In this document: positions 7,825 to 61,831 of the stretch, in pieces
Layout of the letters: each line of letters begins with the position of its first letter
How positions within the stretch are numbered: position 1 is the first letter of the stretch
From: Candidatus Babelota bacterium
GTDB taxonomy: Bacteria; Babelota; Babeliae; Babelales; GCA-2401785
Reading direction: 5' to 3'
Length of the DNA stretch: 61,831 nt
Assembly (NCBI GenBank): GCA_042576345.1
Contig: JBHPCE010000001.1
Location: 1-61,831 of the forward strand
Notes under the pieces: model-generated
What the model was told of the DNA's origin: nothing
Seen by the model: only the letters and a program-made list of their open reading frames with translations
The model's database searches: none
Program-made: the position numbers and the translations under genes

Positions 7825-7875
7825 GCTCTCATTTTATAGCAATAAACCTATAGTATGCTTCAGATTTCTCTTTAA

Positions 7876-8045
7876 TGTCATCCCAGACTCGATCTGGGAT
7901 CTAGTCCCTTTTTTTGCCAAAAAATAATTTGGTTCGTGAAATTTGATCAAAGCGCCTTGAGCTGAAAAACCCCTATTCAAGCACCATTCAGCATAAAGCA
8001 TTCTGGATTAAGCGGTCTAGATCCCAGATCAAGTCTGGGATGACA
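7876..8045 (+). mobile_element. MITE copy 1 (nested-palindromic, roughly 170 bp)
   Basis: The termini tgtcatcccagactcgatctgggatctag ... ctagatcccagatcaagtctgggatgaca are inverted repeats of each other. Each terminus is also itself a hairpin (atcccaga/tctgggat). Boundaries are uncertain by about 12 bp. Confidence 0.85.
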
Positions 8046-9741: not shown

Positions 9742-10788
9742 TTATTTTGTAGCTATGTACTCAAGAACGTCCAAGTTCCTTGGAAAAAAATCCTTATTTT
9801 TTCTGGATTCGCACCAAATTTTCTTTGTCTCATCACTCGAGCAACGCTCAATAAGCCCGTCTATCGAACAAAGAACATTTTCTGGAATAATTACCACTTT
9901 TGTCTTCCTTCCTGTGGTCATGTACACAACAGAAGCCGCAAAGAGACTTTCACTGTCGCACAATCCCTTAAGACAGGTTTTTTCAAGATGCGTAAAATTG
10001 AGCTGTATCGACAACTGCTTATTCTCAATTGATATCCCTCTTTTGCCTCCTTTAGCTTTCCAGCCTAAGTAATTGCACCCCGCAAGACTCCACAGAGCTT
10101 TGTTAAGCTCTATAAACTCATGTTCCATCCTGCCGACAACAGTTGTGTAATAATTTGTAACGCTTTTTAAAACTTCAAAAACCTGCCGCAACTCACTCAC
10201 ACTCAATAGTCTGGAATAACAATCTAGTTCGCGATTCTCACTTCTTGAAAAACTGGTTAAAATTCCAGGCATCAAAATAGCGGCAACGCCTCCTTTGTAC
10301 CTCAAAGATATTGTGAACGGCACTTCCCAACGAACGCTAAACCCAGTTTCCACTTCCTCGTGTGGCCAGGAAAAGTGGCAATAATTTGGAAACTCTTTTG
10401 TCAAAAACATCGAAAAAGTACGTTCGATAGGCGAATTCATGTACTCTGCGACAAGCTCACAAAGCTCTTCTGGAGAATCCTCCCAGGCGTTGTAAACAAT
10501 ATTTTTAAGTTCACAGCAGTTTCTTATCTCTCGCTGGTTAAGCTCTGTTGAAGAGATGGATACAGTGGTCAAAACGCCCAATAATGAAAATACAGATTTT
10601 AACCTCTTTGTCATCCCAGGCTTTGACCTGGGATCTAAACCGATTAATCCCAAATAATTTAACAGAAAATCTTGCTTAGAGCGGCATTCAGACTTTGTTT
10701 CCTTGATCATTTTTATCAAAAAACGGAATAGATCCCAGATCAAGTCTGGGATGACAGATTTGTCTAAAAACGACGCTAACAACTTCAT
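9742..10788 (-). CDS. Hypothetical protein whose annotated 5' end runs through a MITE
   Basis: The ORF of 348 aa has no recognisable motif. Residues 1-59 are a translation of MITE copy 2 (VIPDLIWDL, GLDPRSKPGM). A more likely start is the ATG at 10614, inside the MITE terminus gggATGaca, which gives MTKRLKSVFSLLGVLTTV.... Confidence 0.55.
   Translation of the reverse strand: MKLLASFLDKSVIPDLIWDLFRFLIKMIKETKSECRSKQDFLLNYLGLIGLDPRSKPGMTKRLKSVFSLLGVLTTVSISSTELNQREIRNCCELKNIVYNAWEDSPEELCELVAEYMNSPIERTFSMFLTKEFPNYCHFSWPHEEVETGFSVRWEVPFTISLRYKGGVAAILMPGILTSFSRSENRELDCYSRLLSVSELRQVFEVLKSVTNYYTTVVGRMEHEFIELNKALWSLAGCNYLGWKAKGGKRGISIENKQLSIQLNFTHLEKTCLKGLCDSESLFAASVVYMTTGRKTKVVIIPENVLCSIDGLIERCSSDETKKIWCESRKNKDFFPRNLDVLEYIATK
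10609..10756 (-). mobile_element. MITE copy 2 (shorter, inverted orientation)
   Basis: The termini are tgtcatcccaggctttgacctgggatc ... gatcccagatcaagtctgggatgaca. The internal sequence aligns to the reverse complement of copy 1. Confidence 0.8.
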
Positions 10789-12105: not shown

Positions 12106-12158
12106 CCAGGTCTCCTTTCACGCCAAAAACCGATAGAATTCTTCAAATTTCCCTTTAA

Positions 12159-12328
12159 TGTCATCCCAGACTTGATCTGGGATCTATACCTTTTTTTTGC
12201 TAAAAAAATATTTTGGTTCATGAAATTTTATCTTATCAGTTTAAGCTCGTAATCCTTGTTAACGCATCTTTCGTCATGAAGTTTCCTGTATTAAGCGGCC
12301 TAGATCCCAGATCGAGTCTGGGATGACA
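12159..12328 (+). mobile_element. MITE copy 3
   Basis: It has the same termini and internal sequence as copy 1 (gggatctataccttttttttgctaaaaaaatattttggttcatgaaatt...). Confidence 0.85.
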
Positions 12329-18000: not shown

Positions 18001-18170
18001 TGTCATCCCAGACTCGATCTGGGATCTCTTCCTCTTAATTTAAACAGCCTTGCTATGAAAGGCGCTTGAATAGACATTTCCCAGCTTAAAACATTCCTGT
18101 TCAAATTCTATGAACCAAAACATTTTATGGCAAAAAAAGGACTAGATCCCAGATCAAGTCTGGGATGACA
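18001..18170 (-). mobile_element. MITE copy 4 (inverted orientation)
   Basis: It has the same termini. Its reverse complement aligns with copy 1 (gggatctagtcctttttttgccataaaatgttttggttcatagaa...). Confidence 0.85.
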
Positions 18171-18202: not shown

Positions 18203-20605
18203 TCACTTCTTTTTTGAAGAACTCTTTTTCGTTGCCACCTTTTTCTTTGAAAAGGGTGATTTTACCAAAGTTTCTTTTAAAACCTCGTCCATAGTTTTGA
18301 CATAAACAATTTTGATGTCGCCACCAAGCTCTTTTTCGAATTCCTTGATGTCATTTTTGTTTTCCTCTGGAACTATCACTGTTTCAAATCCCAGGCGTCT
18401 TGCAGCCAAAAGCTTTTCTCTTAAACCGCCCACAGGAAGCACTCTTCCGCGCAATGTAACTTCTCCAGTCATTGCAATTTTGTCTTTTACTGCAATTTTG
18501 GTCAAAACAGAAGCTATCGCCGCACCAATTGTTATACCAGCAGAAGGACCGTCTTTTGGAATTGCGCCTTCTGGAATATGAATGTGAATATCCGAGCCAG
18601 AATAAAAATCAGTTTTTACACCTAGTTCTTTTGCTATGGCCCTTATGTAACTGAGCGCAGCCTGGGCCGACTCGTGCATAACCTCTCCAAGCTGTCCTGT
18701 GACAGTTAACTCGCCCTTACCCTTGAAAAATGTAACTTCCACTTCTAAAACGTCGCCGCCAACCTCTGTCCAAGCAAGTCCAGTTGCAACGCCACAGACG
18801 CCTTTTGTGAAAGTATGATGTGCTTTAAAATGAGGAGCTCCAAGCCATTCTTCCAATTTTTTTTCTGTGATGACAACTTTCTTGGGAGGCTTTTCTCCAA
18901 TTAAAAGCTGAATTGCTTTTCTGTAAAGCTTTGCGATCAGTCTTTCCAACTGACGCACTCCAGCCTCTTTTGTGTACTCTTTGATAACTTTTTTGACAAT
19001 GGCATCAGAACATTGAACTTGAGCAGGTTTTAAATCGTATTGCTTCAAAAGTTTTGACATCAGATGCTTTGTTGCAATTTCTAACTTTTCCTCCTGTGTG
19101 TAGCCAGAAAGATAAACAATCTCCATCCTATCAAAAAGAGGAGCCGGAATGTGATCCATAACATTTGCGGTTGTTACAAAAAGAACCTTAGAAAGGTCAT
19201 ATTCAACTTCTACAAAGTGATCCACAAAGCCTTTATTTTGCTCGGGATCCAAAACTTCCAACAATGCCGATGCGGGGTCTCCCCTCATGTCCGAAGACAT
19301 CTTGTCCACTTCGTCAAGCAAAATAAGCGGATTGATAACTTTTGCTTTTTTCATTGCCTGGACAATTTTGCCAGGCATTGCACCTATGTAAGTTCTTCTA
19401 TGGCCGCGTATTTCCGCCTCATCTCTAACACCACCAAGTGAGATCCTGACGAACTTTCTACCCATCGCCTTGGCAATAGATGCGGCCAAAGAGGTTTTTC
19501 CAACACCAGGAGGGCCAACAAGGCAAATTATTGGCGCACGTTCAAGCTTTTCTCCAGCAAACTTTTTGGCCGCCAAAAACTCAATAATCCTTTCCTTGGC
19601 CTTCTTCATGCCAGAATGAGTGGAATCTAAAATTTCTTCTGCCTCAGCCAAGCCAACCTTGTCTTTTGTCTGCTTGTACCACGGCACAGAGGTCAGCCAG
19701 TCAACAAAATTGCGACTCACAGCCGCTTCCGGCGATGATGCAGGCATTTGCTCCAACCTTCGGCATTCCGAAAGTACTTTTTCCTTAGCCTCTTCTGGCA
19801 ACTTTAATTTTTTAACCTTTTTCCGCAAACTCTCTATTTCCTGAGTGATATCTTCTCGCCCAAGCTCACGCTGTATTGCCCGGATTTGCTCGTTGAGATA
19901 ATAATCGCGCTGATGTTTTTCGATCTGACTTTGAACTCTTTTGCGCACACTCTTTTCGGCCTTAAAAACCTCTATTTCGTTCTGAATTAAGGCACATAGA
20001 TGTATTGCTCTTTCTTTAACATCAAGCATTTCCAATAGATTTTGTTTTTCCTTAAAATCCATCTGAACATGAACAGCAACCGAATCGACCAGCGTTTCAA
20101 GATCACTTACAGATTTCAGCGGTGTTAAAGCATCCGGAGAAATTCTATCGTTGTAGGACACATATTCTTTGAATGACAGGAAAATGCGCCTTGAAAGGGC
20201 CTTACGCTCTGTAGCACTCTCCACACCAATAGACTCAACGTCTTGTACAACAGCGTCCAGATAATCTTCTGCATCACCCGGTTCTATGACCCGCGCGCGC
20301 CTAATTCCCTCGACCAAGAGCTTCATTGTGCCGTCTGCATCCTTTTTCATCTGCAAAATCACAGCACGAGTTCCATACTCATAAACATCAGAAACTTTGG
20401 GTCTGACAACCTCACTCAATTTTTGAGACGTCAAAAAGACAGCCCTATCACTCTTGAGCGCCTCTTCAACGGCTCTCACAGAGATATCGCGGCCCACTCG
20501 GACCGGCAAAATCCCCTTTGGGAGCGCCACAACGTTTTTTAGAGGCAAAATGGGAAGAAGCCTTCCCTGAAAAACTTGATCTTTTTTTTCTGCATCTTTA
20601 GGCAT
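18203..20605 (-). CDS. lon: ATP-dependent Lon protease (LonA), copy 2
   Basis: It carries GPPGVGKTS, LILLDEVDK, PKDGPSAGIT and GGLREKLLAARR. The RBS AAGGAA lies upstream. The C-terminal tail is K-rich. Confidence 0.95.
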   Translation of the reverse strand: MPKDAEKKDQVFQGRLLPILPLKNVVALPKGILPVRVGRDISVRAVEEALKSDRAVFLTSQKLSEVVRPKVSDVYEYGTRAVILQMKKDADGTMKLLVEGIRRARVIEPGDAEDYLDAVVQDVESIGVESATERKALSRRIFLSFKEYVSYNDRISPDALTPLKSVSDLETLVDSVAVHVQMDFKEKQNLLEMLDVKERAIHLCALIQNEIEVFKAEKSVRKRVQSQIEKHQRDYYLNEQIRAIQRELGREDITQEIESLRKKVKKLKLPEEAKEKVLSECRRLEQMPASSPEAAVSRNFVDWLTSVPWYKQTKDKVGLAEAEEILDSTHSGMKKAKERIIEFLAAKKFAGEKLERAPIICLVGPPGVGKTSLAASIAKAMGRKFVRISLGGVRDEAEIRGHRRTYIGAMPGKIVQAMKKAKVINPLILLDEVDKMSSDMRGDPASALLEVLDPEQNKGFVDHFVEVEYDLSKVLFVTTANVMDHIPAPLFDRMEIVYLSGYTQEEKLEIATKHLMSKLLKQYDLKPAQVQCSDAIVKKVIKEYTKEAGVRQLERLIAKLYRKAIQLLIGEKPPKKVVITEKKLEEWLGAPHFKAHHTFTKGVCGVATGLAWTEVGGDVLEVEVTFFKGKGELTVTGQLGEVMHESAQAALSYIRAIAKELGVKTDFYSGSDIHIHIPEGAIPKDGPSAGITIGAAIASVLTKIAVKDKIAMTGEVTLRGRVLPVGGLREKLLAARRLGFETVIVPEENKNDIKEFEKELGGDIKIVYVKTMDEVLKETLVKSPFSKKKVATKKSSSKKK

Positions 20606-25188: not shown

Positions 25189-25908
25189 GTGGTTGACATG
25201 AAGATGAAAAATATATTTATGGGCATTATTGCGATATTCCTTTCACAAAACATAATCAAAACAACAGAACCATCCCCCTTGACAGTACTTAAAGAGGATG
25301 GAATAAATTTACAGGAAGCGGAAGACATAAGTTCTCGTTTAAATTTGCAACAAAAAATAGATGCGACCAAACAAATCATTAAATCTAGGAGTTCGGCTAC
25401 TGTTACATTTAAACTTAACGGAAAGTTTTACTTCTTTACGCCATTTACAAAAAAATGGTACGTAATTGGATCGTCAAAAGAAACTTCCGAACTTAATGAT
25501 GATGATCTAAAAGAAATCTCTGAGAAAGAATTGCAAAAACTCATACCACCAACAATTATTGGATCGCCAAAAGAAATTTCCGAACTTAATTTCGAAAACG
25601 TTACCTTAGGCTCACTAAAATCACCCTACGCTCTCCTTACAGCCTCGGGAATTTTAATCCCTGTGGGAACGTTAATCTACTACATTATAAAATCAAAAAA
25701 TAAAGGCATGGGCGATAAAATTAAACAAGCGTTCAGAAAATTGTTAAGAAACAAGATTCTGCTTGCATCTTCACTGACACTTTTGACTGTAGGAATCGGC
25801 TCCAAGTGCCTCAACAGAGTGTTCGAAAGTGAAGGGCCATGTAAAACATTTGTTGATTTCATGAACAAGCCATTGGAAGGCTGGAAGAAGTCTGGCGATG
25901 ACGACTAA
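25189..25908 (+). CDS. Secreted/membrane protein, family member A, with a shared C-terminal hairpin module
   Basis: It has a signal peptide and an internal repeat (GSSKETSELN / GSPKEISELN). The C-terminal module ENVTLGSLKSPYALLTASGILIPVGTLIYYIIKSKNKGMGDKIKQ... is shared with 26244-27020. The ATG at 25198 may be the true start. Confidence 0.65.
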   Translation: MVDMKMKNIFMGIIAIFLSQNIIKTTEPSPLTVLKEDGINLQEAEDISSRLNLQQKIDATKQIIKSRSSATVTFKLNGKFYFFTPFTKKWYVIGSSKETSELNDDDLKEISEKELQKLIPPTIIGSPKEISELNFENVTLGSLKSPYALLTASGILIPVGTLIYYIIKSKNKGMGDKIKQAFRKLLRNKILLASSLTLLTVGIGSKCLNRVFESEGPCKTFVDFMNKPLEGWKKSGDDD

Positions 25909-27020
25909 TCAAAGAATCTTTTTAGTTTTGGCCTTTGGCGCTTTTACGTTGGGATTGAGGGCGACTGACGAAACACAAAGCCTCATAGAACAAATAAAAC
26001 GTTGCCAAGACTTCACGAAAACCGAAGGAAAAAGTACTGAAAAGATTTTTAAAAGTATGAATCCGGGCCAAAAGGTTACGTTGGAAGGCGATCTTACCAT
26101 TTACAGAATCAGTGTTGGTGGAAAACCTAAATATGCCCTTAAAGCAAACTATGATGAAAGCGATTTCGCCCTATATGATAATTTAGATGATTTAAGAAAA
26201 ATATTCACAGAAAGTAACTTTCCAAGTATAAAATCTCAAATACATGTACAACACGATAACTCCCCCCCCCCCAAAAATTGGATTTAACATTACTGTTGAC
26301 GGAATAGATTTTTCATGCCAGGGAAACCAAAAACGTGAATGGGATGTTTTTGAAAATGAAGTTAAAAGAAAGCCAACCTATAAAGAACTTTTACTCATAA
26401 CAGAAAAATGCATTTCCTTATCCAAAGCTCATAAATATTACAGAATATTCACTCCAAAACTTCCAATATCCTTTCACGGAAATCCTTTCGTTCATCTCGG
26501 GTTTAAGCCGCCAAAGCCAAAGCCAAAGCCAAAGCCAAAGCAAGAGCCAGCAGATGACGATACTGATAAGGCGCCTCTAGAAAACGTTACCTTAGGCTCA
26601 CTAAAATCACCCTACGCTCTCCTTACAGCCTCGGGAATTTTAATCCCTGTGGGAACGTTAATCTACTACATTATAAAATCAAAAAATAAAGGCATGGGCG
26701 ATAAAATTAAACAAGCCCTCGGCAAACTTGTCAAAAACAAAATTGCACTCCTATCCTCACTCACACTTTTGACCGTAGGAATCGGTTCAAAATGCCTCAA
26801 TGGAGTGTTTTCAGATGAAGGACTATGCAATACCGTTTTTGATTTCATGAACACACCTCTGGGAAGCTCAAAGAAGTCTGAGGTAGGTAGACTCGAAGAA
26901 TTTGAAGATTTATACCCAGAAATTACCACTGGCCCCATTGGTGGTGGCTTACATGACGATAGTGATAACTCACGTCTTCTTCACGGTGAAGAAAATACAG
27001 AGTACGCTGATCAAAGTTGA
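25898..27020 (+). pseudogene. Family member B, split into two ORFs (25898-26287 and 26244-27020) by a C11 homopolymer. It is either a phase-variable gene in the OFF state or a homopolymer sequencing error.
   Basis: The first ORF has a signal peptide (MTTNQRIFLVLAFGAFTLGLRA) and ends ...HDNSPPPKNWI*. The second reads ...TPPPPKIGFNITVDG... and lacks its own signal peptide or RBS. A run of C10 or C13 would fuse them in frame. Confidence 0.6.
26262..26272 (+). repeat. Homopolymeric C11 tract
   Basis: Counted directly: t26261, then 11 C, then aaaaa. Confidence 0.95.
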
Positions 27021-52195: not shown

Positions 52196-53731
52196 CTAAG
52201 TCTTCGTCTCCTCGGCAACTTTAAGACTGACAGAGTTTTCTTTAGAAATTCGCAAACGCTTTACCAGCGAAAAAGAGTCCTTCAGTACCTTCTTTGAATC
52301 AAAAACACCAAGAACACCTACGTGATTTTTTAACACAACAAATTCGTCATTCTTCAAAGATCTTTCAACCTCTCTTCTAAAATCTTTTAGAGTATTCGTC
52401 TCAACATCACCAACAGATTTTATCAGATCTCCCATACGAATGCATTGCCCGGTAGCACTCGCTTCACAAGTCGGAATCACGTATGTAACTATCAATGCTG
52501 GACGACCTGTACAAACTTCCATTAACAAATATTTAGCAAGAAGGGGATTGTGTTTTTCGAAGGCTCTAACATGAGATTTAGACAGCTCCATCACGACAAA
52601 TCCTGCACCAAAAACCTCGTAATCAATTTTTTCATAACCAAAGAACAAATTTCTTACAGGGGGAACATTGGTATTCTTCTTTTTTTCTTTTAGCTTCAAT
52701 TTCTTACCAGAACGAAAAACTCCAACTTCTATGTCGGCCCCTAAAGGCAATCGAGAAATCACCTCTAACAATGGAACAGGCTCGTCACTCCAACCAACCG
52801 AAACCAAGCCGTTTCTGTCAATTTTTTTTCCGTTTACCTCACAAATTAGATCTCCCTTTTCAACTCCCATTCTACCCGCAAAACCTTCGGGACAAAGATC
52901 AACCACGTAAACACCTCCCAAACCCTTTGGACACTTCAAAAATTTTAACAACGAAGGTGTTGCTAGTTGCACGGTTACACCACAAAAAAGCCGTCTAACA
53001 ATCTTGGTTTTCTTCATTTCTTCAATCACGGCTTTAACCGAGTCGATTGGAATCATATAACCTACATTCTGAGCATCACTGAATGCAGCAAAATTAATTC
53101 CAACAACCCAACCCTCCTTATTCACAGTTGGACCACCGGAATTTCCATTATTAATCGGTGAAGTGGTTTGCAAACAGATTGAGTTGAAGCCAACAATATC
53201 GAACGTAACAGTCTCCCATCCGGAAACAACCCCCTGAGCACCTTTTAAATGCTCTTGCCCAAGAGGAAATCCCAAAGCTAACGTAGCACTCCCCCTTCTC
53301 ATCTTGTCAGAAGATCCAAATCTTAAAAAAGGAACTTTTTGAAAATTATCTTTTAATTTTTTTATACCCTCATCACACAGTTTAATGAGAGCTAAATCAT
53401 TTTCTGGAGAAATACTTACAACTTCAACATCAAAACGATTCTTTCCAATAGATGGAACCTGTATTTGTACACGTTTTGCATTCGCAACAACGTGATAATT
53501 TGTAATAATCAATCCACTTTCGTCTATTAAAAATCCACTACCACAACACTGAGAAACTTCGCCTTCCTTGTAAGGCTCACTGAAACTGAACCCTGAAAAA
53601 TCGTTAAAAACTTGAACAACAGCATTGCGACACCTTTCCTGCACATCGGCCCAGGAATCGCCAAAAAACCAAGCATTTAAAGGCAAAAAAGACGAAAAAA
53701 CCAAACAACAAAACAATAAACTTTTTTTCAT
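52196..53731 (-). CDS. HtrA/Deg-type trypsin-like serine protease, paralog 1
   Basis: It has a signal peptide. The catalytic triad contexts are ITNYHVV, NDLALIKL and NNGNSGGP. A PDZ-like C-terminal region is present. Confidence 0.8.
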   Translation of the reverse strand: MKKSLLFCCLVFSSFLPLNAWFFGDSWADVQERCRNAVVQVFNDFSGFSFSEPYKEGEVSQCCGSGFLIDESGLIITNYHVVANAKRVQIQVPSIGKNRFDVEVVSISPENDLALIKLCDEGIKKLKDNFQKVPFLRFGSSDKMRRGSATLALGFPLGQEHLKGAQGVVSGWETVTFDIVGFNSICLQTTSPINNGNSGGPTVNKEGWVVGINFAAFSDAQNVGYMIPIDSVKAVIEEMKKTKIVRRLFCGVTVQLATPSLLKFLKCPKGLGGVYVVDLCPEGFAGRMGVEKGDLICEVNGKKIDRNGLVSVGWSDEPVPLLEVISRLPLGADIEVGVFRSGKKLKLKEKKKNTNVPPVRNLFFGYEKIDYEVFGAGFVVMELSKSHVRAFEKHNPLLAKYLLMEVCTGRPALIVTYVIPTCEASATGQCIRMGDLIKSVGDVETNTLKDFRREVERSLKNDEFVVLKNHVGVLGVFDSKKVLKDSFSLVKRLRISKENSVSLKVAEETKT

Positions 53732-53774
53732 TATGCATCCTATCGGTAGAAAAACATTCTATAAAAACTTTAAA

Positions 53775-55472
53775 TCAGCAAACCACACAATTTTTTGATT
53801 CGGCTAGAACCATTGAATGCGTTTTATCATACATGAAAAGATTTGCCAGTCTAGTTTCATCTTCGAAAAGCGGCCTTGTGGCAACAACTGCCAATCTGTC
53901 ATCATCCGTCGTAATCCTTACAAACTCCTTAGATCCAGTCTTTTTGAGCTCCTTTCTGAGCTCCCCAAGAGTTGACACTTTTTTTCCGTTGACCTCATCT
54001 AGAAGTGATCCAACCGTGATAATTCCCCTCATGTTGTGAACCTTCGATGTTGGTTGTATGTGTGTAACAATAAGCCTTTTGTCATATTGATGTTCATCGA
54101 ACGCGTATTTGATAAGCGTTGGGACATTATCACCTAAAATGGCTATATGATTTAATGCAAGCTCCATTATCACAAGCCCACCAAAGACCTCGTAGTCAAC
54201 ATTTTCATAATCGGGATACACAAACCTAATCGGCGGAATCTCATCTTTTTCAAAAACAAACTTAAACTCTTTTCGCTTGCCACCTCTGTAAACGACAAAA
54301 GAAATCTCATCACCAACTACAAGCCGATTCAAAAGATCCATTCCAGAAACCTTGTCCTCACTCCATGTGACAACAACATTGCTCTGGTAATCGAGCAGAT
54401 GGCCATTTATCTCTTTGATCACATCACCTTTTTTAAGACCAACCTTTTCTGTAAGACTCCCTTTCATGACCTTTGTCACATAAAGACCACCACCTTTTGG
54501 AAAATTTAAATATTTTGCCATGTCTTCCGTTGTGTGCTGCATAGCACATCCTAGTCGCGGTTTTCTTAAAAGCTCCACGTTGTGCAAATCCGCAATCGCA
54601 CTTTTGACATCGTTGATTGGAATGACATAGCCAACATTTTGGGCATTGGCTGCACCAGCAAAATTGATGCCAATAACCTCGCCATTACCGTTAAGCGAGG
54701 GACCTCCCGAACTTCCAGGGTTAATTGGCGCCGTCATCTGAAAACAAAGCTGGCCAAAACTACGCTCGCTAAAAATTATGCGTTCCCATCCACTCAAAAT
54801 CCCTTGCGTACTCTTGATATGCTCCATTCCAAGCGGAAAACCAAGAGCCAAAAGCTCTTCACCACGCTGGACATCATCTGAACTCCCAAATTTCAAAGCA
54901 GGAATTTTACCGAATTCTTGTCGCAACCTTGCACATCCATACTCATCGAGTTTTACCAGAGCCAAATCTCTCTCTGGACTAACGCCCAACACATGCGCAT
55001 CAAACCTCTCTTTCCCAAAAACAGGAAGTTGAACTTGAACTCTCAGTGCCTGGGAAACAACATGATAATTTGTGAGAAAATGACCTTTTTCATCAATGAA
55101 AAATCCACTCCCCCTTCCCTCTCCTTGACTAGGCACCTTGTAAGGTTCCAACCAATTAAAGGCCAAGGTATTTGTAAATACCTGAAGAACGGAATTACGA
55201 GCCTTTTTTTGAACTTCAATCCATCTGGACGGCACAATCCCAGGCTTATTTTCCAACTGCTCTGTAAAAACAGCTCTTTTTCTCGAAGCTTCTTTAACCA
55301 CGCTGATTTCACTTTTTATTTTATTAAGATCGGTAGAAATTTCCGAAAACTTTTTGGTGAAACCAAAATCAACCCCAAAAAAACTGTAAAGGATGTAAAA
55401 AATGAAGCCTGTACACAAAACGGGCAAAACAAAATAACGCACAATTTTCACAGAATTTTTTTCAAAAAGCAT
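53775..55472 (-). CDS. HtrA/Deg-type trypsin-like serine protease, paralog 2
   Basis: It has an N-terminal TM segment. The triad contexts are LTNYHVV, RDLALVKL and NPGSSGGP. A PDZ-like region is present. Confidence 0.8.
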   Translation of the reverse strand: MLFEKNSVKIVRYFVLPVLCTGFIFYILYSFFGVDFGFTKKFSEISTDLNKIKSEISVVKEASRKRAVFTEQLENKPGIVPSRWIEVQKKARNSVLQVFTNTLAFNWLEPYKVPSQGEGRGSGFFIDEKGHFLTNYHVVSQALRVQVQLPVFGKERFDAHVLGVSPERDLALVKLDEYGCARLRQEFGKIPALKFGSSDDVQRGEELLALGFPLGMEHIKSTQGILSGWERIIFSERSFGQLCFQMTAPINPGSSGGPSLNGNGEVIGINFAGAANAQNVGYVIPINDVKSAIADLHNVELLRKPRLGCAMQHTTEDMAKYLNFPKGGGLYVTKVMKGSLTEKVGLKKGDVIKEINGHLLDYQSNVVVTWSEDKVSGMDLLNRLVVGDEISFVVYRGGKRKEFKFVFEKDEIPPIRFVYPDYENVDYEVFGGLVIMELALNHIAILGDNVPTLIKYAFDEHQYDKRLIVTHIQPTSKVHNMRGIITVGSLLDEVNGKKVSTLGELRKELKKTGSKEFVRITTDDDRLAVVATRPLFEDETRLANLFMYDKTHSMVLAESKNCVVC

Positions 55473-55493
55473 AGCGGTACTCTAAAAAAAGGA

Positions 55494-56003
55494 TTACTTA
55501 CAAACGCTAACTCTGGCATGGCGAAGAACAACGTCCTTAAACTTGTAACCTTTTCTCAGAACTTCGACAATAGCCCCAGAATCGTGCTTTTCAGATTCTA
55601 CAGAAACTAAAGCTTCGTGAAAATGTGGATCAAAAGGAACCGTACAATCAATTTCTTCAACACCCTGATCTTGCAAAATCTTATTAAACTTCTTTTGAAT
55701 CAGCCTAAAACCTTCCATCCACTCTCTGTCCGAATCTGTTGTTTCAGAAGCTTCTGCTGCGAGCATCGCTAGATCGATATCATCGATCAAAGGCAAAAAT
55801 AGACGTAAAACTGCAGCCTGACTGACAATACCCCACCCAGCGCGTTCTTTTTCTGTCCTTTTTTTGAAATTCTGAAAATCCGCCGTTACACGCAAAAGCC
55901 TCTCAGAGCACTCTTTTAGCTTATTACAATAAGCCCCATCGCTTCTGTTTTCCACTTCAACTTTTTCTACAGCCTCAGCTCCAACGTTCTTTTTATCTTT
56001 CAT
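55494..56003 (-). CDS. grpE: Nucleotide exchange factor GrpE
   Basis: It carries LLRVTADFQNFKKRTEKE and GFRLIQKKFNKILQDQGVEEI...FDPHFHEAL. The start is set at the ATG at 56003. Confidence 0.85.
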   Translation of the reverse strand: MKDKKNVGAEAVEKVEVENRSDGAYCNKLKECSERLLRVTADFQNFKKRTEKERAGWGIVSQAAVLRLFLPLIDDIDLAMLAAEASETTDSDREWMEGFRLIQKKFNKILQDQGVEEIDCTVPFDPHFHEALVSVESEKHDSGAIVEVLRKGYKFKDVVLRHARVSVCK

Positions 56004-56236
56004 CCGACACCCATAAATAACTTTAAATAATAGAAGAACCACGATTTTTAGGAAAAGTAGCCATTCGGTAATCTTACCATAGAAAACCAAATGCTCAAAA
56101 TTTGAATTTCACAAAGCATATGTAACGAAAAAATAAGTGGAAAATTTAGCTAAAGTTGGCAGCAAATTTATCAACATATTCACAAACCAATAGAATATTT
56201 TTTCATACCTCATCAAAAGTCCTTCGCAGTTATTCG

Positions 56237-57244
56237 TCAGGTACTCTCTTGCGCCTTACCAATAACCGACCTTATAGCTGCTTGGATGACTGCCTCTTCT
56301 GCATCATCGTCGAAGACCCAATGTTCCTCGTCCCAGCCACCACCTGCTTTAACCAATAGTTCATCAAATTCATCAACCTTTTTTGCATTATCTAAATAAG
56401 CTAAAAGTGTATCTGCATTTTCTTCAGTAATAATCCCCGTAGCAATCTCTTTTAGCCTAACAAATCCATAGTAATCTTCATTCAACACATCAAAGTACAA
56501 CCTTTCAGCAAGTTTTTTAATAGCCTCATCTTTACTTGTAACTTGCGCAGTCTGCACAACTACCACAGCATCTTCTGCCTCCTTACTACTATCTTCTACT
56601 CCTCTTTCTTTCTCACTACCTCTTTCGCCATCATGAACTGGTTCAACACTGTGCCTTAGAACTCTCATAGTCTGCACAGTAACCGGATTTCCATTTTGAT
56701 CCTTACCTACCACTGTTTCATCTTCACCAAGCTGTCCCCCCACAAATCCCAACATAGTGTCGTCATCACCTTCTTCATCGCCTTGTCCGCCTGCAATAGG
56801 AGCTCCTCCTGGCTTGTCATCGTCTTCTTCTTCTTCTTCTTCTTCTTGTTGTTCTTCTTCTTCTTCTTCTGTTTGTTCTTCTTCTACTGATTCTCCTTTT
56901 CTTCTTTGAAACAGCATATTAATACCGCCCACCAACGCACAACTCATGCAAAGTGCGCGAATTAAGTTTCTTTTTTTATTTTCTTTACTAATGAATGTAA
57001 CCTTTAAAGCCTCTTTAAGGGCTTCTTGAATCGATTCAGATCTCGGCTTTTGTTGGATGAAGTTGTATGCAAACGCAACAACAGATTCAATTCCAGCCCC
57101 AATACCTAAAACAATCCCCAGGCTAGCAATACCCTGCACAAGTTCACTTCTACTTGAAGAATCAGCTCCAGAAGGCGTATCCGTTGCTCCAACCGAAACA
57201 CCTACTGACAAAACAAATAAAACTGTAAAAAACATCTTTTTCAT
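56237..57244 (-). CDS. Secreted acidic (poly-E) protein with a hydrophobic hairpin
   Basis: It has the signal peptide MKKMFFTVLFVLSVGVSVGA, followed by a TM-loop-TM segment. The acidic tract reads EEEQTEEEEEEQQEEEEEEEDDD. Confidence 0.65.
   Translation of the reverse strand: MKKMFFTVLFVLSVGVSVGATDTPSGADSSSRSELVQGIASLGIVLGIGAGIESVVAFAYNFIQQKPRSESIQEALKEALKVTFISKENKKRNLIRALCMSCALVGGINMLFQRRKGESVEEEQTEEEEEEQQEEEEEEEDDDKPGGAPIAGGQGDEEGDDDTMLGFVGGQLGEDETVVGKDQNGNPVTVQTMRVLRHSVEPVHDGERGSEKERGVEDSSKEAEDAVVVVQTAQVTSKDEAIKKLAERLYFDVLNEDYYGFVRLKEIATGIITEENADTLLAYLDNAKKVDEFDELLVKAGGGWDEEHWVFDDDAEEAVIQAAIRSVIGKAQEST
56823..56885 (-). repeat. Imperfect (GAA)n / (CTT)n trinucleotide tract encoding poly-Glu
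   Basis: The plus strand reads tcttcttcttcttcttcttcttcttgttgttcttcttcttcttcttctgtttgttcttcttc. Confidence 0.85.
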
Positions 57245-57573
57245 AACACTTTTCCTTTTTTAATTAAACAATCACTAATCCTTCATACAGCAACCGGCCG
57301 CATAATCCCACTGAACACAATAACGATTATAGACCAAAAAAATAATAATGCAAGTCTTCACACAAAATACATCATTTTTATACAGACTGACAATTCGCCA
57401 CCCTCTTTATCCTTTCGATTTCACTGTTCTAGAACTAAAAATCGACAGTACAATACAGAAGTATGGTTCGAGATTTTCTTTGATGCCGTAGGAGCCCCAA
57501 ACCTAACCTTGGGCCTTTACGACACATTTGTTTTTTGGCAAAAAACCGATAGCTTGATTCAGATTTCCCTATA

Positions 57574-57741
57574 ATGTCATCCCAAACTTGATCTGGGATC
57601 TAGTCCTTTTTTGCCAAAAAAATATCTTGATTCATAAGATTTAATCATCTGAACTTAAGCTCAAAAGCCCCTGTTCAAGCGTCCTTTAAAATAAAATCCT
57701 CTGGATTAAGAGGTCTAGATCCCAGATCAAGTCTGGGATGA
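57574..57741 (+). mobile_element. MITE copy 5
   Basis: The termini are tgtcatcccaaacttgatctgggatctag ... ctagatcccagatcaagtctgggatga. The internal sequence is like copy 1. Confidence 0.85.
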
Positions 57742-57756
57742 TGGACTGAAAAAGTT

Positions 57757-57975
57757 CTAAACCAATGGCAACGGCTGTTTTCGGCCTTGCCAAAACTCTG
57801 GGCCATAGTCAATTAAAAGCTGCTCTCCAGGCTTAATATCTCTTGCAGCTACAAAAACCAAGTGCCATAGCCCTCGGTGGTAGACGTACTCCCCATCAAT
57901 GTTTCTTTTCGAGTCGTGGTTCAGAAACCTGAAATAATTCTCGTGTATTTTGGACCTACAAAAGCCATTAAACAT
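57757..57975 (-). pseudogene. 3' fragment of a second SET-domain gene
   Basis: The 72-aa ORF has a C-terminal 60 aa (NYFRFLNHDSKRNIDGEYVYHRGLWHLVFVAARDIKPGEQLLIDYGPEFWQGRKQPLPLV) that duplicates the C-terminus of 59845-60672. The catalytic N-terminal part is missing. Confidence 0.8.
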
Positions 57976-58090
57976 GCAAATCTACGCGAATTTACGCGCA
58001 AAAAAACAAAACTCGCACTTTTCCTAAAATATTATAATATAAGTAATATAATTAAATGTGGATGATTAATTTTATATAGAAAGGTGGGGC

Positions 58091-59488
58091 GTGGTTAAAA
58101 AATTAATATTATTACCTTTAGCTTTTTTTGGCCTTGGAAGGCCAGCACATCAACTTTCAGCAACGGCAAAAGTAGCTTCTGGTGCATTCTTTGCCGGCGG
58201 CACATTTGTTTTGCTGCGCGACATAGCCAGGTGTATAAAAAAAAGAAAAATAAGTAAAGAAGCTGCAATGCGGATTACAGCAAGTCTTACGGTAATGGGA
58301 CTTTCTGGTTGGCATCTTTATTATGCTTGGCAACAAGCACATGCAGTAGAGCCTGAACCAGAACCAGAGCCTGACGAACCAGCAGTCCCATTGGAAATAC
58401 CATCTGTTCCAAGTGCTGCACATTTATCTGAAGGAGTTCGTGTCAAAATAGGTGGACGAACAATCAGCGATAAAGAAAAGCTAGAGTTTTTTGAACGTAT
58501 AAAGACTAAAGTTGCCTTTGCACAGTTTATAGAATCTCTTTGGACTCATGGCCATTTTGGCGCTAGTACTGAAGATGGATTAGCTTATCCTCTTATTGAA
58601 TTTTCGGATTTGGGAGAACGAGTCTCTTTCGATAATCTTGGACTTTCTTTAAAATCGAATGAAACTGCTTTGCGCAGCATAACCCTTGATGGGTTGTCAC
58701 TTCACGCAAGTTTATATTTGAAACAAGCCTATTTGGCAAGTTTTACGTGTAGATCTGCAAGCTTGATAAGTGTTGTGTTTGATGGGTGCACCACTACCAA
58801 AGCAGATTTTAGTGGGTCTGATTTTGAAAAATGTTATTTGCATGGTGTTGATCTCTGCCATTCCGTAATGTATACACCTCATGGTGAATATGTGGAACAA
58901 GTAATCCAAGTAGCAATTGATCAAGGTGCGCAGTTGGAGGCCACAGAAAAGCTTAAACGTTTTAATGAAGCCTATAATTTTTTAGCTAAATCTGATTTTA
59001 AGACTTGGTTTGAAGGTTGGTCGCATTCTTGTTCGTGTACATACATAAGAGACTCAACAATAAAAGAAACTGATCTTTCTAATGCAGATCTTAGGGTTGT
59101 ACATTTTAACAACGTCGAGTTAATAAATTCAAGTTTTGAACATACAGATTTGAGGCTTTCTCACTTTATTGAATGTAATTTTGATAAAGTATCTTTTGTT
59201 GGTGCTAAAACTCTTGGCGCGTGGTTTCGGGATTGCAATTTAAGTGACTCGGATCTAAGTGGATTAGATTTCTCTAGAACGAATATGAAAAGAACAAACC
59301 TTCGCGGAGCAGATCTTTCTAATACAGTTTTTGCGAAAGCAGATTTGAGAGAAATGGATTTTTCTAATGTTAAATTAATTGAAGGTGCAATCTTCTATGA
59401 TGCTCGGATTGACACTAGCCAAAGAGAAGTGTTGCAAAGCCGTGGCATACCTGAAGAAGCATTGCAAGGTGTTCACTGGGCGGTTTGA
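58091..59488 (+). CDS. Pentapeptide-repeat protein with an N-terminal hydrophobic hairpin and an EP-rich linker
   Basis: The C-terminal half is made of A(D/N)LxX-type pentapeptide repeats (ADLSNADLRVVHFNNVELINSSFEHTDLRLSHFIECNFDKVSF...NLRGADLSNTVFAKADLREMDFSNVKL). The linker reads EPEPEPEPDEPAVP. Confidence 0.8.
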   Translation: MVKKLILLPLAFFGLGRPAHQLSATAKVASGAFFAGGTFVLLRDIARCIKKRKISKEAAMRITASLTVMGLSGWHLYYAWQQAHAVEPEPEPEPDEPAVPLEIPSVPSAAHLSEGVRVKIGGRTISDKEKLEFFERIKTKVAFAQFIESLWTHGHFGASTEDGLAYPLIEFSDLGERVSFDNLGLSLKSNETALRSITLDGLSLHASLYLKQAYLASFTCRSASLISVVFDGCTTTKADFSGSDFEKCYLHGVDLCHSVMYTPHGEYVEQVIQVAIDQGAQLEATEKLKRFNEAYNFLAKSDFKTWFEGWSHSCSCTYIRDSTIKETDLSNADLRVVHFNNVELINSSFEHTDLRLSHFIECNFDKVSFVGAKTLGAWFRDCNLSDSDLSGLDFSRTNMKRTNLRGADLSNTVFAKADLREMDFSNVKLIEGAIFYDARIDTSQREVLQSRGIPEEALQGVHWAV

Positions 59489-59513
59489 AGTCTTAAGTAC
59501 AACACTTCGTTCA

Positions 59514-59772
59514 TTATAAAACAACTCCAGTTTCTTTAAAAATAACTTGCGCAGGTGTCTGAAAATTCAGGGTTTTTCGGGGTCTTCTATTAAGTTTACG
59601 CATAATCTCATTAATTTCATCATCCGATACATCGTCAAAATTTGTGCCCTAAGGCAAATATTGTCTGACAAGGGGGGGGGGGGGGTTGGTTGCACAATTT
59701 CTCCATTGACGCATGTAGTAACGAATTGTGAGCTGTACAAAGACTACTGCAAACTCTCTTTTTTTTTACCCC
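59514..59772 (-). mobile_element. Remnant of an IS30-family transposase gene (3' end only, with an in-frame stop)
   Basis: The minus-strand translation is ...QWRNCATNPPPPLVRQYLP*GTNFDDVSDDEINEIMRKLNRRPRKTLNFQTPAQVIFKE...*. This matches the conserved IS30 C-terminus (WQRG.NENTNGL.RQY.PKGTD...LN.RPRK.L...TP.EVF). Confidence 0.7.
59672..59685 (+). repeat. Homopolymeric G14 tract
   Basis: Counted directly. It lies inside the IS30 remnant, where it reads as PPPP on the minus strand. Confidence 0.95.
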
Positions 59773-59844
59773 TAGGTATTGAACTTCAAATTTCAAAGTA
59801 GGTGGTAGTCAAATCCGCAAACATAACAAAAAAAACATAACCCC

Positions 59845-60672
59845 CTACGCTAGCGGCAACGGCTGTTTTCGGCCTTGCCAAAACTCTGGGCCATAGTCAA
59901 TTAAAAGCTGCTCTCCAGGCTTAATATCTCTGGCTGCTACAAAAACTAAGTGCCACAAGCCCCTGTGGTAGACGTATTCACCATCAACGTTTCTTTTCGA
60001 GTCGTGGTTCAGAAATCTGAAATAATTACCCTCTCTCATAACATCGATTACAAACTGTCTGTCAGGATTAGCCGAGGGATAGTGAAATAAGTAGTCATTT
60101 TGATGGCTTACTTTGTACACCGGCACAATCTGACCTGCGCATTCACCCAGAAAATCGCCTTTTTTTATCTTGCCTTTTGCGTAAACACCATATCCAACCA
60201 GACTGTTTGTCCATCCAACATAGATCGAACCAATTTCCTTGGAATCAAGTTTTTTTCCAAAGCGCTTTACCATATCTTTTTGATAAGTTCGTTCATCCTT
60301 GCAAAGGTTTATTTGAACATCATCGTCAAAAACATCTAAAGTGGAAGCTACAAGAGAATCTTGGTACTGAGCACCTAGCGCAGGAAAGTCCTTTTTCCAA
60401 TATTTTTTACTTTTAAGTGCTGCCAAGTGAGTTATCTTTTCAACACCTTTTGCAGCAACATCTTTTTCCGAAATCTTGGATTCCACAACCTTAAGAGCAT
60501 GCTTTATGATTGGATTACTAGACTTTTTGTACCCAGAAGGCATTCTAAACTTTGATTTTTTTAATATCCCAGAGCCCTTATGCCGCCTAAAACCACCTGC
60601 AAGTGCACAAAAACTATAAAAGCCCATCAGTGTAACTAACATTGTTAAAAATCTTTGTGAATAAACTTTCAT
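59845..60672 (-). CDS. SET-domain protein (putative protein lysine methyltransferase) with a signal/anchor N-terminus
   Basis: It carries GYGVYAKGKIKKGDFLGECAGQIV, FRFLNHDSKRN (in place of the NHSCxPN box) and GEQLLIDYG (the ELxxDY box). Confidence 0.75.
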   Translation of the reverse strand: MKVYSQRFLTMLVTLMGFYSFCALAGGFRRHKGSGILKKSKFRMPSGYKKSSNPIIKHALKVVESKISEKDVAAKGVEKITHLAALKSKKYWKKDFPALGAQYQDSLVASTLDVFDDDVQINLCKDERTYQKDMVKRFGKKLDSKEIGSIYVGWTNSLVGYGVYAKGKIKKGDFLGECAGQIVPVYKVSHQNDYLFHYPSANPDRQFVIDVMREGNYFRFLNHDSKRNVDGEYVYHRGLWHLVFVAARDIKPGEQLLIDYGPEFWQGRKQPLPLA

Positions 60673-60835
60673 GATTCAATTCTCCTTTGCTCATACAATC
60701 CCTACAATCAATAAAATTTTATATCGATCTAAACACTCCGTGCGCAAGTTGTGGCGTTTTCGCTGTATCTTAGTATGATTACTTGTTGTAAGGCTATCAG
60801 TAGCAAAAAACAACTTATTGGCTTTAATTACGGTT

Positions 60836-61831
60836 ATGATTGAACTAAAAAACATTTCACTGACACTTGGGAACAAAGAACTTTTCAGAAATTTTTCCAT
60901 GCTACTTTCCAAAAAACGCCGCATAGGTGTTGTTGGACGCAACGGAAGCGGCAAATCTACCCTTTTAAAACTTGTAACGGGCCTCTTAACGCCAGACTCT
61001 GGCTCTATCGAGACAAAAAAAGGTCAAACAATTGCCTATGTTCCTCAAGAAATGGTTTTTGAGACAACAAAAACTATCTTTCAAGAAGCTATGATGGCCT
61101 TTGAAGATCAAATCCACTCCAAAGAAGCTTTGGATGGGCTGATTGAAAAATACGAATCACAACATACGTCATCGTCTGACGAACTTGCAGAACAAATACA
61201 CACACTTTCCGAAAAAATTAAAGACACAAATTTTAACCAGCTCGAAAAGAAAGCTCAGCAAGCCCTGTTTGGTCTTGGTTTTGACGAGAAACAAATGAAT
61301 CAGCCCGCATCAACACTAAGCGCTGGCTGGAAAATGCGCCTACTTCTGGCAAAACTATTGCTTCAAAATGCCGACTTTTATCTCTTTGATGAACCTACAA
61401 ACCACCTGGATATTGTCGCCAGAGACTGGTTTTTGGACTTCGTACAAAAATCCAATTTCGGTTTTTTACTTGTCAGTCACGACCGATATTTTCTAGATCA
61501 CGCCTGCTCCCACATCTTAGACCTAGATCAAAAACCACCAAAACTTTATGTTGGAACGTACGCTAATTTTTTAGAAAAAAGAAAACACGACTTGGAAATC
61601 TTAAAAGCGGCTGTCGTTAACCAAGAGAGAATGATAAAAGCCAAACTAGCTACAGCAGAGCGATTTCGAGCAAAATCCAGCAAAGCAAAAATGGCTCAAA
61701 GTATTTTCAAAGAAGTAGAAAAAATTGAAAAAATAGAGCTTCCCCAAGAGACAAGTTCAATCAAAATCAAGTTTAAAGATATACCGCGTTCTGGAAAAAT
61801 CACCCTAGAAACCAAGAACTTGTCCAAATCT
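60836..61831 (+). CDS. ABC-F family ATPase, with its 3' end outside the window
   Basis: It begins MIELKNISLTLGNKELF. Walker A is GRNGSGKST, the signature is LSAGWKMRLLLAKLL and Walker B is FYLFDEPTNHLD, followed by an ABC-F-type linker. There is no stop before the window end, so it is absent from the ORF track. Confidence 0.85.
   Translation, partial: MIELKNISLTLGNKELFRNFSMLLSKKRRIGVVGRNGSGKSTLLKLVTGLLTPDSGSIETKKGQTIAYVPQEMVFETTKTIFQEAMMAFEDQIHSKEALDGLIEKYESQHTSSSDELAEQIHTLSEKIKDTNFNQLEKKAQQALFGLGFDEKQMNQPASTLSAGWKMRLLLAKLLLQNADFYLFDEPTNHLDIVARDWFLDFVQKSNFGFLLVSHDRYFLDHACSHILDLDQKPPKLYVGTYANFLEKRKHDLEILKAAVVNQERMIKAKLATAERFRAKSSKAKMAQSIFKEVEKIEKIELPQETSSIKIKFKDIPRSGKITLETKNLSKS

Follow-up and report, generated by a model that had tools for sequence, protein, structure and literature searches.

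The window, by which we mean the whole stretch of DNA analysed (61,831 nucleotides), carries a mosaic locus between grpE and an ABC-F ATPase gene, composed of the following features.

55494–56090, minus strand: grpE, which is conserved and anchors the gap on one side (Pfam GrpE, E 1e-37; 66% identical to L001/L005, two of the related loci described below)
56237–57244, minus strand: gene for an acidic, Glu-rich membrane protein of 335 aa with hydrophobic segments, lineage-specific, inside the SET-grpE gap
57531–57741: MITE of 211 bp, with 34-nt terminal inverted repeats at 57577–57610 and 57708–57741
57757–57939, minus strand: first repeat copy, a relic of 60 codons and the stop codon from the 3′ end of a second SET gene
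57767–57843 (= 59855–59931): identical tract of 77 nt, a tract of recombination or gene conversion between the SET copies
57940–58090: junction and upstream region of the pentapeptide-repeat gene, with no SET homology and no IS end
58091–59488, plus strand: orphan pentapeptide-repeat protein gene, 465 aa (Pfam PF00805, E 3e-27)
59517–59753, minus strand: decayed 3′ end of an IS30-family transposase gene (NF033563 match)
59845–60027, minus strand: second repeat copy, comprising the final 60 codons and the stop codon of the intact SET gene
59845–60672, minus strand: intact SET-domain gene, 275 aa, the resident, syntenic copy (PF00856; orthologues in the same ABC-F/GrpE context)
60836–61831, plus strand: ABC-F ATPase gene cut by the contig end, the other anchor (60% identical to the ABC_tran gene adjoining SET in L001/L005)
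7832–8043, 12122–12326, 18003–18170 and, partial, near 10611–10756: other copies of the MITE

All five components recognised in the initial annotation were confirmed: the intact SET gene and the 3′ fragment of SET, the pentapeptide-repeat gene, the remnant of IS30 and the MITE. The product of the intact SET gene matches the whole of the Pfam SET profile PF00856 (positions 1–105 of 105, E 4.5e-19, 69.3 bits against a cut-off of 22.4), and its best relatives in the PDB are histone lysine methyltransferases of eukaryotes (EHMT2, EZH2 and NSD2; E 3e-10). It contains the sequences RFLNHD and DYG, which we take to be conserved SET motifs, and its N-terminus is signal-peptide-like, with a hydrophobic segment at residues 8–26. 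The relic lies inside a 72-aa open reading frame (57757–57975), of which the first 12 codons are unrelated to SET, as is everything upstream of codon 13, and it covers positions 55–105 only of PF00856 (E 5e-11), so that the SET domain is incomplete and the N-terminal AdoMet-binding half is missing.

The two SET copies form direct repeats, as had been proposed, with coordinates that shift by one base at most. The core of 173 nt (57767–57939 against 59855–60027, at an offset of 2088 bp) carries the same 12 mismatches as counted before, at 93% identity, and the homology extends 10 nt further to both stop codons (57757–57759 and 59845–59847), adding 5 mismatches while P-L-[V/A]-stop is still encoded, so that the full repeat measures 183 nt with 17 mismatches. 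At the other end the homology stops sharply at 57939/57940. Over the full repeat the copies are 91% identical in nucleotides and 97% identical in amino acids; two replacements are present, I/V and, at the last residue, V/A, where a single one (I/V) had been reported.

The alignment of the repeats was used for the calculation of dN/dS. Outside the identical tract dS is 1.0–1.6 and dN is 0.013–0.025, the synonymous sites being almost saturated, and 15 of the 17 changes are synonymous (P = 6e-9 under neutrality), giving a dN/dS of about 0.02. Since the divergence is overwhelmingly synonymous, the relic evolved within a functional gene before it was truncated, and what remains is the dead 3′ terminus of a second SET copy that was once functional and had long diverged from the resident one. 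The proposal that the fragment derives from a second SET paralog evolving under selection before truncation thus stands with respect to past selection, while a paralog is one of two equally viable sources of the second copy, the other being DNA of a related strain integrated by homologous recombination. A recent self-duplication, either as a long target duplication or by slippage, is ruled out by the dS above 1 outside the tract.

The start of the repeats, described earlier as identical over roughly 80 bp and left uninterpreted, is identical over 77 nt (57767–57843 = 59855–59931), and the divergence switches sharply there from 0% within the tract to 12.5%. The tract shows no difference over 15.3 synonymous sites, whereas pS in the flanks is 0.56–0.67, and a run of at least 77 identical nucleotides, given 17 mismatches in 183, has a probability of 0.001. 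On this count the tract is a product of recombination or gene conversion (P about 0.001). A conserved nucleotide element, or other constraint at the nucleotide level, was considered for the tract and rejected, as the relatives are 51–73% identical there, no better than in the flank. That the locus holds the relic of a second functional SET copy together with a recombination tract is, as a general statement, a conclusion in which we have high confidence.

Comparison with four relatives, all of which are distant (SET 45–56% identical) and therefore unable to date the event, showed a common order of ABC-F, one SET gene, zero to two variable genes, GrpE and HtrA, except that a short contig (L004) carries EamA in the place of ABC-F. 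The SET-grpE gap of the relatives is about 65–118 bp, or holds one or two unrelated genes, and the pentapeptide-repeat gene, the acidic protein gene and a second SET gene are absent from all four loci. In the window the same gap consists of 3.75 kb of lineage-specific DNA (56091–59844), in which the acidic protein has no Pfam or NCBIfam family and no counterpart at the relatives' loci. The suggestion of a 2.1-kb insert accordingly holds in that the intervening genes are absent from the relatives, and falls short in that the lineage-specific DNA amounts to 3.75 kb and not only 2.1 kb; the layout that would have spoken against it, two intact SET genes with the same intervening genes and no IS traces, was not seen in the four distant relatives. 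The locus is a small lineage-specific accessory islet of a Candidatus Babeliales genome, placed in the SET-grpE gap, which varies among the relatives too. The relic has retained the neighbourhood downstream, towards grpE, and the intact gene that upstream, towards ABC-F, as expected from an insertion inside one gene, and the SET relic marks the place where the pentapeptide-repeat gene and the decayed transposase were inserted. Neither the I/V position nor the tail codons tell the resident copy apart.

Closer material was sought in sequence collections. A SET alignment scan of genome contigs yielded one locus, L005, at 56% identity, and no genome with a SET gene more than 56% identical was present in the searched collections. 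Neither a protein alignment nor a degenerate DNA pattern for DYGPEFWQGRKQP found a match in metagenome contigs, the scan of viral contigs was likewise empty, and look-ups of the exact products of the SET, acidic protein and pentapeptide-repeat genes returned no records, hence no independent assembly.

Between the repeats the pentapeptide-repeat gene is the sole open reading frame of more than 100 aa. Its product matches PF00805, the family of tandem A(D/N)LXX repeats, with 94.2 bits (cut-off 20.2) in 6 stretches, the repeats lying at residues ~315–440 behind an N-terminal region of roughly 310 aa without family match. It shares a C-terminal right-handed-helix repeat region with pentapeptide-repeat proteins such as Qnr/MfpA and the type III effectors PipB/PipB2, and matches the repeats of Qnr, PipB2 and DotG weakly, far under every equivalog cut-off. 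The homologues found are generic and confined to the repeat region (at most 35% identity over most of the hits listed), with no close homologue among them; the label of an effector-like gene is a guess from the lifestyle of the organism. The base composition of this segment is normal for the genome, so that nothing marks it as foreign, and the 2088-bp unit found no match in plasmid or phage collections.

The transposase remnant matches positions 235–267 of 267 of NF033563 (E 1e-8, 35.1 bits, against a family cut-off of 80), is interrupted by one in-frame stop and has lost about three quarters of the protein from the N-terminal side. It is 45–47% identical to C-terminal pieces of IS30 and retains the C-terminal signature LVRQYLPKG...RPRKTLNFQTP with W-x10-L spacing of that family; unlike an intact IS30 element, with a DDE transposase of roughly 300–380 aa, it keeps about 50–75 C-terminal residues and is a dead fragment. 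A run of 14 G (59672–59685) overlies its NENTNG catalytic-E motif. No inverted repeats were found to bound the remnant, no target duplication was seen in its flanks, and tblastn detected one IS30 piece in the window, in place of the two IS copies around a cargo that make up a composite transposon. With junctions that carry no IS ends, target duplications or integrase, the IS-mediated insertion or rearrangement put forward in the initial annotation is not shown.

The MITE, whose end lies 15 bp from the relic's stop codon, is a short non-coding element with terminal inverted repeats (91% complementary) in multiple copies: the window has at least 4 further copies and 9 matches to the repeat motif, where none would be expected by chance. 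No clear target-site duplication was apparent in the sequence flanking the aligned copies, and no autonomous transposase partner is present in the window. By eye, the terminal repeats of the MITE are unlike the sequence beside the IS30 remnant.

How the second copy arrived is a separate matter, on which we lean, at a little short of an even chance, towards a single homologous crossover of the Campbell type. The donor would have been DNA of a related Babeliales lineage carrying, in order, a SET 3′ end, an already decaying IS30 and the pentapeptide-repeat gene, and it would have integrated by one crossover within the resident SET gene. Such an event would duplicate the homologous segment around a 2088-bp insert and leave the resident gene intact, and the region of strand exchange, identical between the copies afterwards, would be the 77-nt tract; IS30 would be a passenger or neighbour and not a demonstrated agent. 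The layout agrees with what is known of Campbell-type integrations and of island relics at gene 3′ ends, as direct repeats of the homology region flank the insert, with one complete copy and one truncated 3′ relic of the gene, and as the repeats are similar yet non-identical outside the exchange tract. In such cases recombination between the repeats can remove the insert again, and the identical tract is a plausible substrate for the deletion envisaged earlier: a renewed exchange would take out the pentapeptide-repeat gene together with the remnant of IS30, a single hybrid SET gene being left.

The locus differs from these known cases in that no circular donor, plasmid backbone, integrase or att core was found here, and, unlike islands at tRNA or att sites, its repeat is the protein-coding 3′ end of a diverged homologue, the event being deduced and not observed. 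No site-specific integrative island was recognised either, as integrase or recombinase domains are absent (the three small open reading frames in 59547–59801 gave no Pfam family), no tRNA lies within the window, Rfam gave no matches near the locus and a search for inverted repeats bounding the 2088-bp unit found none. Given that there are no terminal inverted repeats, second IS copy, integrase or tRNA, nothing points to a transposition or site-specific route. Against the Campbell-type crossover it counts that a circular intermediate has to be assumed, that the searched collections hold no donor, closer relative or empty site, the nearest SET being 56% identical, and that a second SET paralog may lie elsewhere in the genome, beyond the contig.

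The principal alternative, possible but on the whole doubtful, follows the scenario of the initial annotation: two SET paralogs stood in tandem between ABC-F and grpE in the ancestor, the pentapeptide-repeat gene came in with an insertion associated with IS30, the distal paralog lost its 5′ 645 bp and IS30 most of its length through adjacent deletions, and gene conversion later homogenised 77 nt. The synonymous-only divergence, showing that both copies were long functional, fits this history, as do the adjacency and same orientation of the copies, the IS30 remnant within the interval and the tract, which shows that the copies interact within the genome and which gene conversion between old tandem paralogs would yield just as well as a crossover. 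Yet a single SET gene occurs in every relative context examined, IS ends and target duplications are absent at both junctions, and the IS30 remnant faces the intact gene, not the truncation point at 57940. Moreover, where one crossover explains the layout, the tandem route needs a duplication, long coexistence to dS > 1 without homogenisation, an insertion and two deletions.

It is improbable that the arrangement is an assembly artefact, in which a chimeric metagenome-assembled contig would join two co-occurring related strains via the 77-nt tract, the G14 run or both, the two SET copies then belonging to different chromosomes. The window is the whole of a 61.8-kb contig from an uncultured lineage, the SET copies have diverged to the level of related species, and the G14 homopolymer is highly unusual for a genome of 40% GC and could presumably be an artefact of two-colour chemistry. 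A chimeric join via a shared repeat, however, swaps contexts and would not give a contig with two copies of the repeat; in either case the joint between SET codon 215 and the pentapeptide promoter (57939/57940) has to be present in some actual molecule; the W-x10-L spacing found in the IS30 motif is retained across the G14 run and speaks against a random join at this point; and both outer sides are syntenic with the relatives.

Very improbable is a relic maintained by selection, whether the 72-aa frame is translated into a small protein of its own, which might for instance modulate the complete methyltransferase, or the relic stays silent and serves the expressed SET gene as a donor for conversion or as a partner in repeated exchange of sequence: such a role would account for a reading frame with an ATG, free of frameshifts and stops and with conservative replacements only despite synonymous saturation and a heavily decayed IS neighbour, as well as for the conversion tract, but the C-terminal half of SET alone is left, a recent truncation explains the intact frame equally well, a cassette with almost nil protein differences would create no variation, and no Shine-Dalgarno-like sequence precedes the frame, unlike the SET, pentapeptide-repeat and acidic protein genes (a weak point, as some housekeeping genes here lack one).

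Babeliales are amoeba parasites. The SET methyltransferase of this locus, conserved near grpE and apparently bearing a signal peptide, is a reasonable candidate for a host-targeting enzyme of the clade. Secreted SET-domain lysine methyltransferases are known from bacteria, namely RomA/LegAS4 of Legionella, NUE of Chlamydia, BtSET of Burkholderia and BaSET of Bacillus anthracis (reviewed in PMC10117894). The present protein resembles them in its complete SET domain, with a weak match to the SET part of LegAS4, and in belonging to an intracellular parasite of protists; unlike them it is small and single-domain, with a Sec-type N-terminus and no ankyrin repeats, and is conserved and syntenic in the Babeliales clade, not accessory.

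The locus as such is an ordinary scar of recombination and rearrangement; gene relics, IS remnants and conversion tracts are routine, and current understanding is unchanged by it. It provides a small, clean example of accessory genes being taken up, at an intergenic hot spot used repeatedly, by the reduced genome of a parasite living inside protists (Babeliales/Dependentiae), with homologous recombination between diverged gene copies shown in such a reduced genome.

The initial annotation had described, between 57757 and 60672, a truncated and an intact SET-domain gene forming direct repeats around a pentapeptide-repeat gene and an IS30 remnant, with a MITE next to the truncated copy. This description was accurate, and all of its parts were confirmed with small corrections, as listed below together with a neighboring gene.

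56237-57244, minus strand: lineage-specific Glu-rich membrane protein, 335 aa, with N-terminal hydrophobic segments; no family matched
57531-57741: MITE, 211 bp, with 34-nt terminal inverted repeats, ending 15 bp from the stop codon of the SET fragment
57757-57939, minus strand: SET 3′ fragment, repeating the last 60 codons plus stop of the intact SET gene about 2.1 kb away
Between the SET repeats: upstream region of the pentapeptide gene, 150 bp
58091-59488, plus strand: pentapeptide-repeat gene, 465 aa (PF00805, E = 3e-27)
Between the SET repeats, minus strand: 3′ end of an IS30-family transposase gene (NF033563 positions 235-267 of 267, E = 1e-8)
59845-60672, minus strand: SET gene, 275 aa, SET domain complete (PF00856 positions 1-105 of 105, E = 4.5e-19)

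The intact SET protein carries a hydrophobic segment at its N-terminus (residues 8-26); its closest relatives of solved structure are eukaryotic histone lysine methyltransferases, and its best homologue is a protein named by NCBI from Candidatus Babeliales (Dependentiae). This homologue is the basis for assigning the window, a complete 61.8-kb contig, to an uncultured member of that order, with orthologues of the neighboring genes as further support. SET-domain methyltransferases of this kind serve intracellular bacteria as nucleomodulins (PMC10117894). The repeat search aligned 57767-57939 with 59855-60027 at 93% identity, with 12 mismatches counted in the 57767-57939 span and 5 more in the final 10 nt before the common stop codon. 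The homology ends abruptly at 57939/57940, and the fragment is included in an ORF of 72 aa, which starts with 12 codons unrelated to SET and covers the SET profile in its C-terminal half alone.

The two SET copies differ at 17 nucleotide positions. Fifteen of these changes are synonymous, the two replacements being I/V and a terminal V/A, while random mutation is expected to leave 21% of changes synonymous (P for at least 15 of 17, 6e-9). The Nei-Gojobori estimates for all 60 codons are 0.56 for dS and 0.014 for dN. This predominance of synonymous changes indicates that the fragment descends from a SET gene that had diverged from the resident one about as far as those of related species or genera under strong purifying selection, confirming quantitatively the initial proposal of selection before truncation. 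The pseudogene phase can account for only a small share of the total divergence, because the fragment contains at most two replacements, no stop and no frameshift. The differences are spread very unevenly, with dS of 1.05 for codons 1-32, saturation for codons 58-60, and no difference at 15.3 synonymous sites for codons 33-57. Given 17 mismatches in 183 nt, a mismatch-free run of 77 nt or longer has a probability of about 0.001. The 77-nt tract (57767-57843 and 59855-59931) was compared among the orthologues from three relative loci, L001, L002 and L004, L005 having the same sequence here as L001; the identity was 39-73%, not above that of the flanking segment, and a conserved nucleotide element was thereby ruled out. 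An identity run of this length without nucleotide conservation indicates that a short tract was later exchanged between the two copies through homologous recombination, at a crossover site or in a gene conversion.

The gene order was compared with four independent relative contexts, L001/L005, L002/L003, L004 and one JGI contig (the last as a gene list only), of which the SET proteins are 56%, 45%, 46% and 45% identical, respectively, to that of the window. The order of ABC-F (opposite strand), a single SET gene, and then GrpE plus HtrA, as in the window at 52196-61831, was found in three of the four, the short contig L004 carrying EamA upstream of SET in place of ABC-F. The flanking genes were confirmed by tblastn as orthologous to those of the window (ABC-F, 60%; GrpE, 66%; HtrA1, 70.5%; HtrA2, 50%), and Babeliales relatives at 45-56% SET identity share the order ABC-F, secreted-type SET, GrpE, HtrA (HtrA). 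Downstream of grpE, the window encodes two HtrA-like serine proteases in tandem (52196-53731 and 53775-55472, minus strand), a paralogous pair shared with L005 and the JGI contig. Because the window is the whole contig, its end truncates the ABC-F gene at 60836. In L001, L004 and L005, SET and GrpE are separated by about 65-118 bp; the spacer contains CN-hydrolase and PAD_porph (agmatine-deiminase-like) genes in L002 and one unrelated hypothetical gene (307 aa) in the JGI contig, and extends over 3.75 kb in the window (56091-59844), with the IS30 remnant, the pentapeptide gene, the SET fragment, the MITE and the Glu-rich membrane-protein gene. The long Glu-rich tract of the latter is encoded by a GAA/GAG-type repeat (56799-56906). 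The second SET copy, the pentapeptide gene and the Glu-rich gene, queried as three pieces, gave no counterpart in the relative loci. No relative carries two SET genes, and two intact SET genes with the same genes between them, the arrangement named beforehand as counter-evidence, were absent from all four contexts. The relatives are too distant for dating the event.

For the pentapeptide protein, the homologue search yielded generic repeat matches only and no close homologue. The IS30 remnant, read as LVRQYLP*GTNFDD...RPRKTLNFQTPAQV, shares 45-47% identity with other IS30 C-termini, scores far under the NF033563 family cut-off, contains one in-frame stop and lacks about the N-terminal three quarters. 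A run of 14 G (59672-59685) occupies the expected place of the catalytic NENTNG motif, with the W-x10-L spacing kept; this run, the sole long G run in a contig of 40% GC, could either have arisen by genuine mutation or be a poly-G artefact of sequencing. Elsewhere, a C11 homopolymer (26262-26272) is located where the ORFs 25898-26287 and 26244-27020, neither with a Pfam match, overlap, which suggests that one gene was broken in two by a frameshift in the homopolymer, arising from phase variation or sequencing error.

As to the origin of the locus, the ancestral upstream neighbor stays with the intact SET gene and the ancestral downstream side with the fragment. Donor DNA bearing a diverged SET 3′ end in linkage with the pentapeptide gene and the IS30 remnant could have recombined with the resident SET gene by a single homologous crossover, giving the present layout; the split of contexts between the copies and the identical tract embedded in diverged flanks fit such a product. 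We tentatively prefer this route, at somewhat below even probability, because it needs fewer events and because a tandem SET pair is present in none of the sampled relatives. An old tandem SET duplication, with later truncation of the distal copy and then gene conversion, predicts the observed layout equally well, and is only somewhat less probable in view of the additional events and the same absence of tandem pairs; the present data do not discriminate between the two. The delivery of an effector-like gene by an IS, as initially proposed, would agree with the presence of the IS30 remnant, but nothing points to catalysis by IS30: no inverted repeats bound the 2088-bp unit, no second IS30 copy and no tRNA gene is present in the window, and no integrase domain was found by Pfam in the small ORFs of the interval. 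The unit resembled no known plasmid or phage, and the IS30 remnant is truncated on the side toward the intact SET gene, away from the place where the SET fragment breaks off. An assembly chimera, for which the G14 run is a point of suspicion, is unlikely from the topology. A functional role for the SET fragment is improbable, as it includes only one half of the domain and encodes nearly the same protein sequence as the intact copy, so that exchange would yield no variation.

The MITE next to the fragment belongs to an abundant family (at least 4.5 copies in the 62 kb), whose members are about 210 bp long and have 34-nt terminal inverted repeats with the core CATCCCAGACTTGATCTGGGATCTAG. Besides the copy at 57531-57741, at least three full copies (7832-8043, 12122-12326 and 18003-18170) and one partial copy (about 10611-10756) were detected in the window, all in short intergenic spacers and mostly about 15-100 bp from a stop codon; no autonomous partner was found in the window. 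Two full-length Lon protease paralogs (5423-7789, plus strand; 18203-20605, minus strand) each have a MITE copy close behind. The 62-kb window contains no tRNA genes.

Each component of the locus, SET-domain methyltransferase, pentapeptide-repeat protein, dead IS30 and MITE, belongs to a well-known class, and together they form a recombination scar of a standard kind; what is new is only another instance, in a poorly sampled lineage. Judging from the varied spacer contents of the window and its relatives, the gap between SET and GrpE is a recurrent site for accessory DNA.
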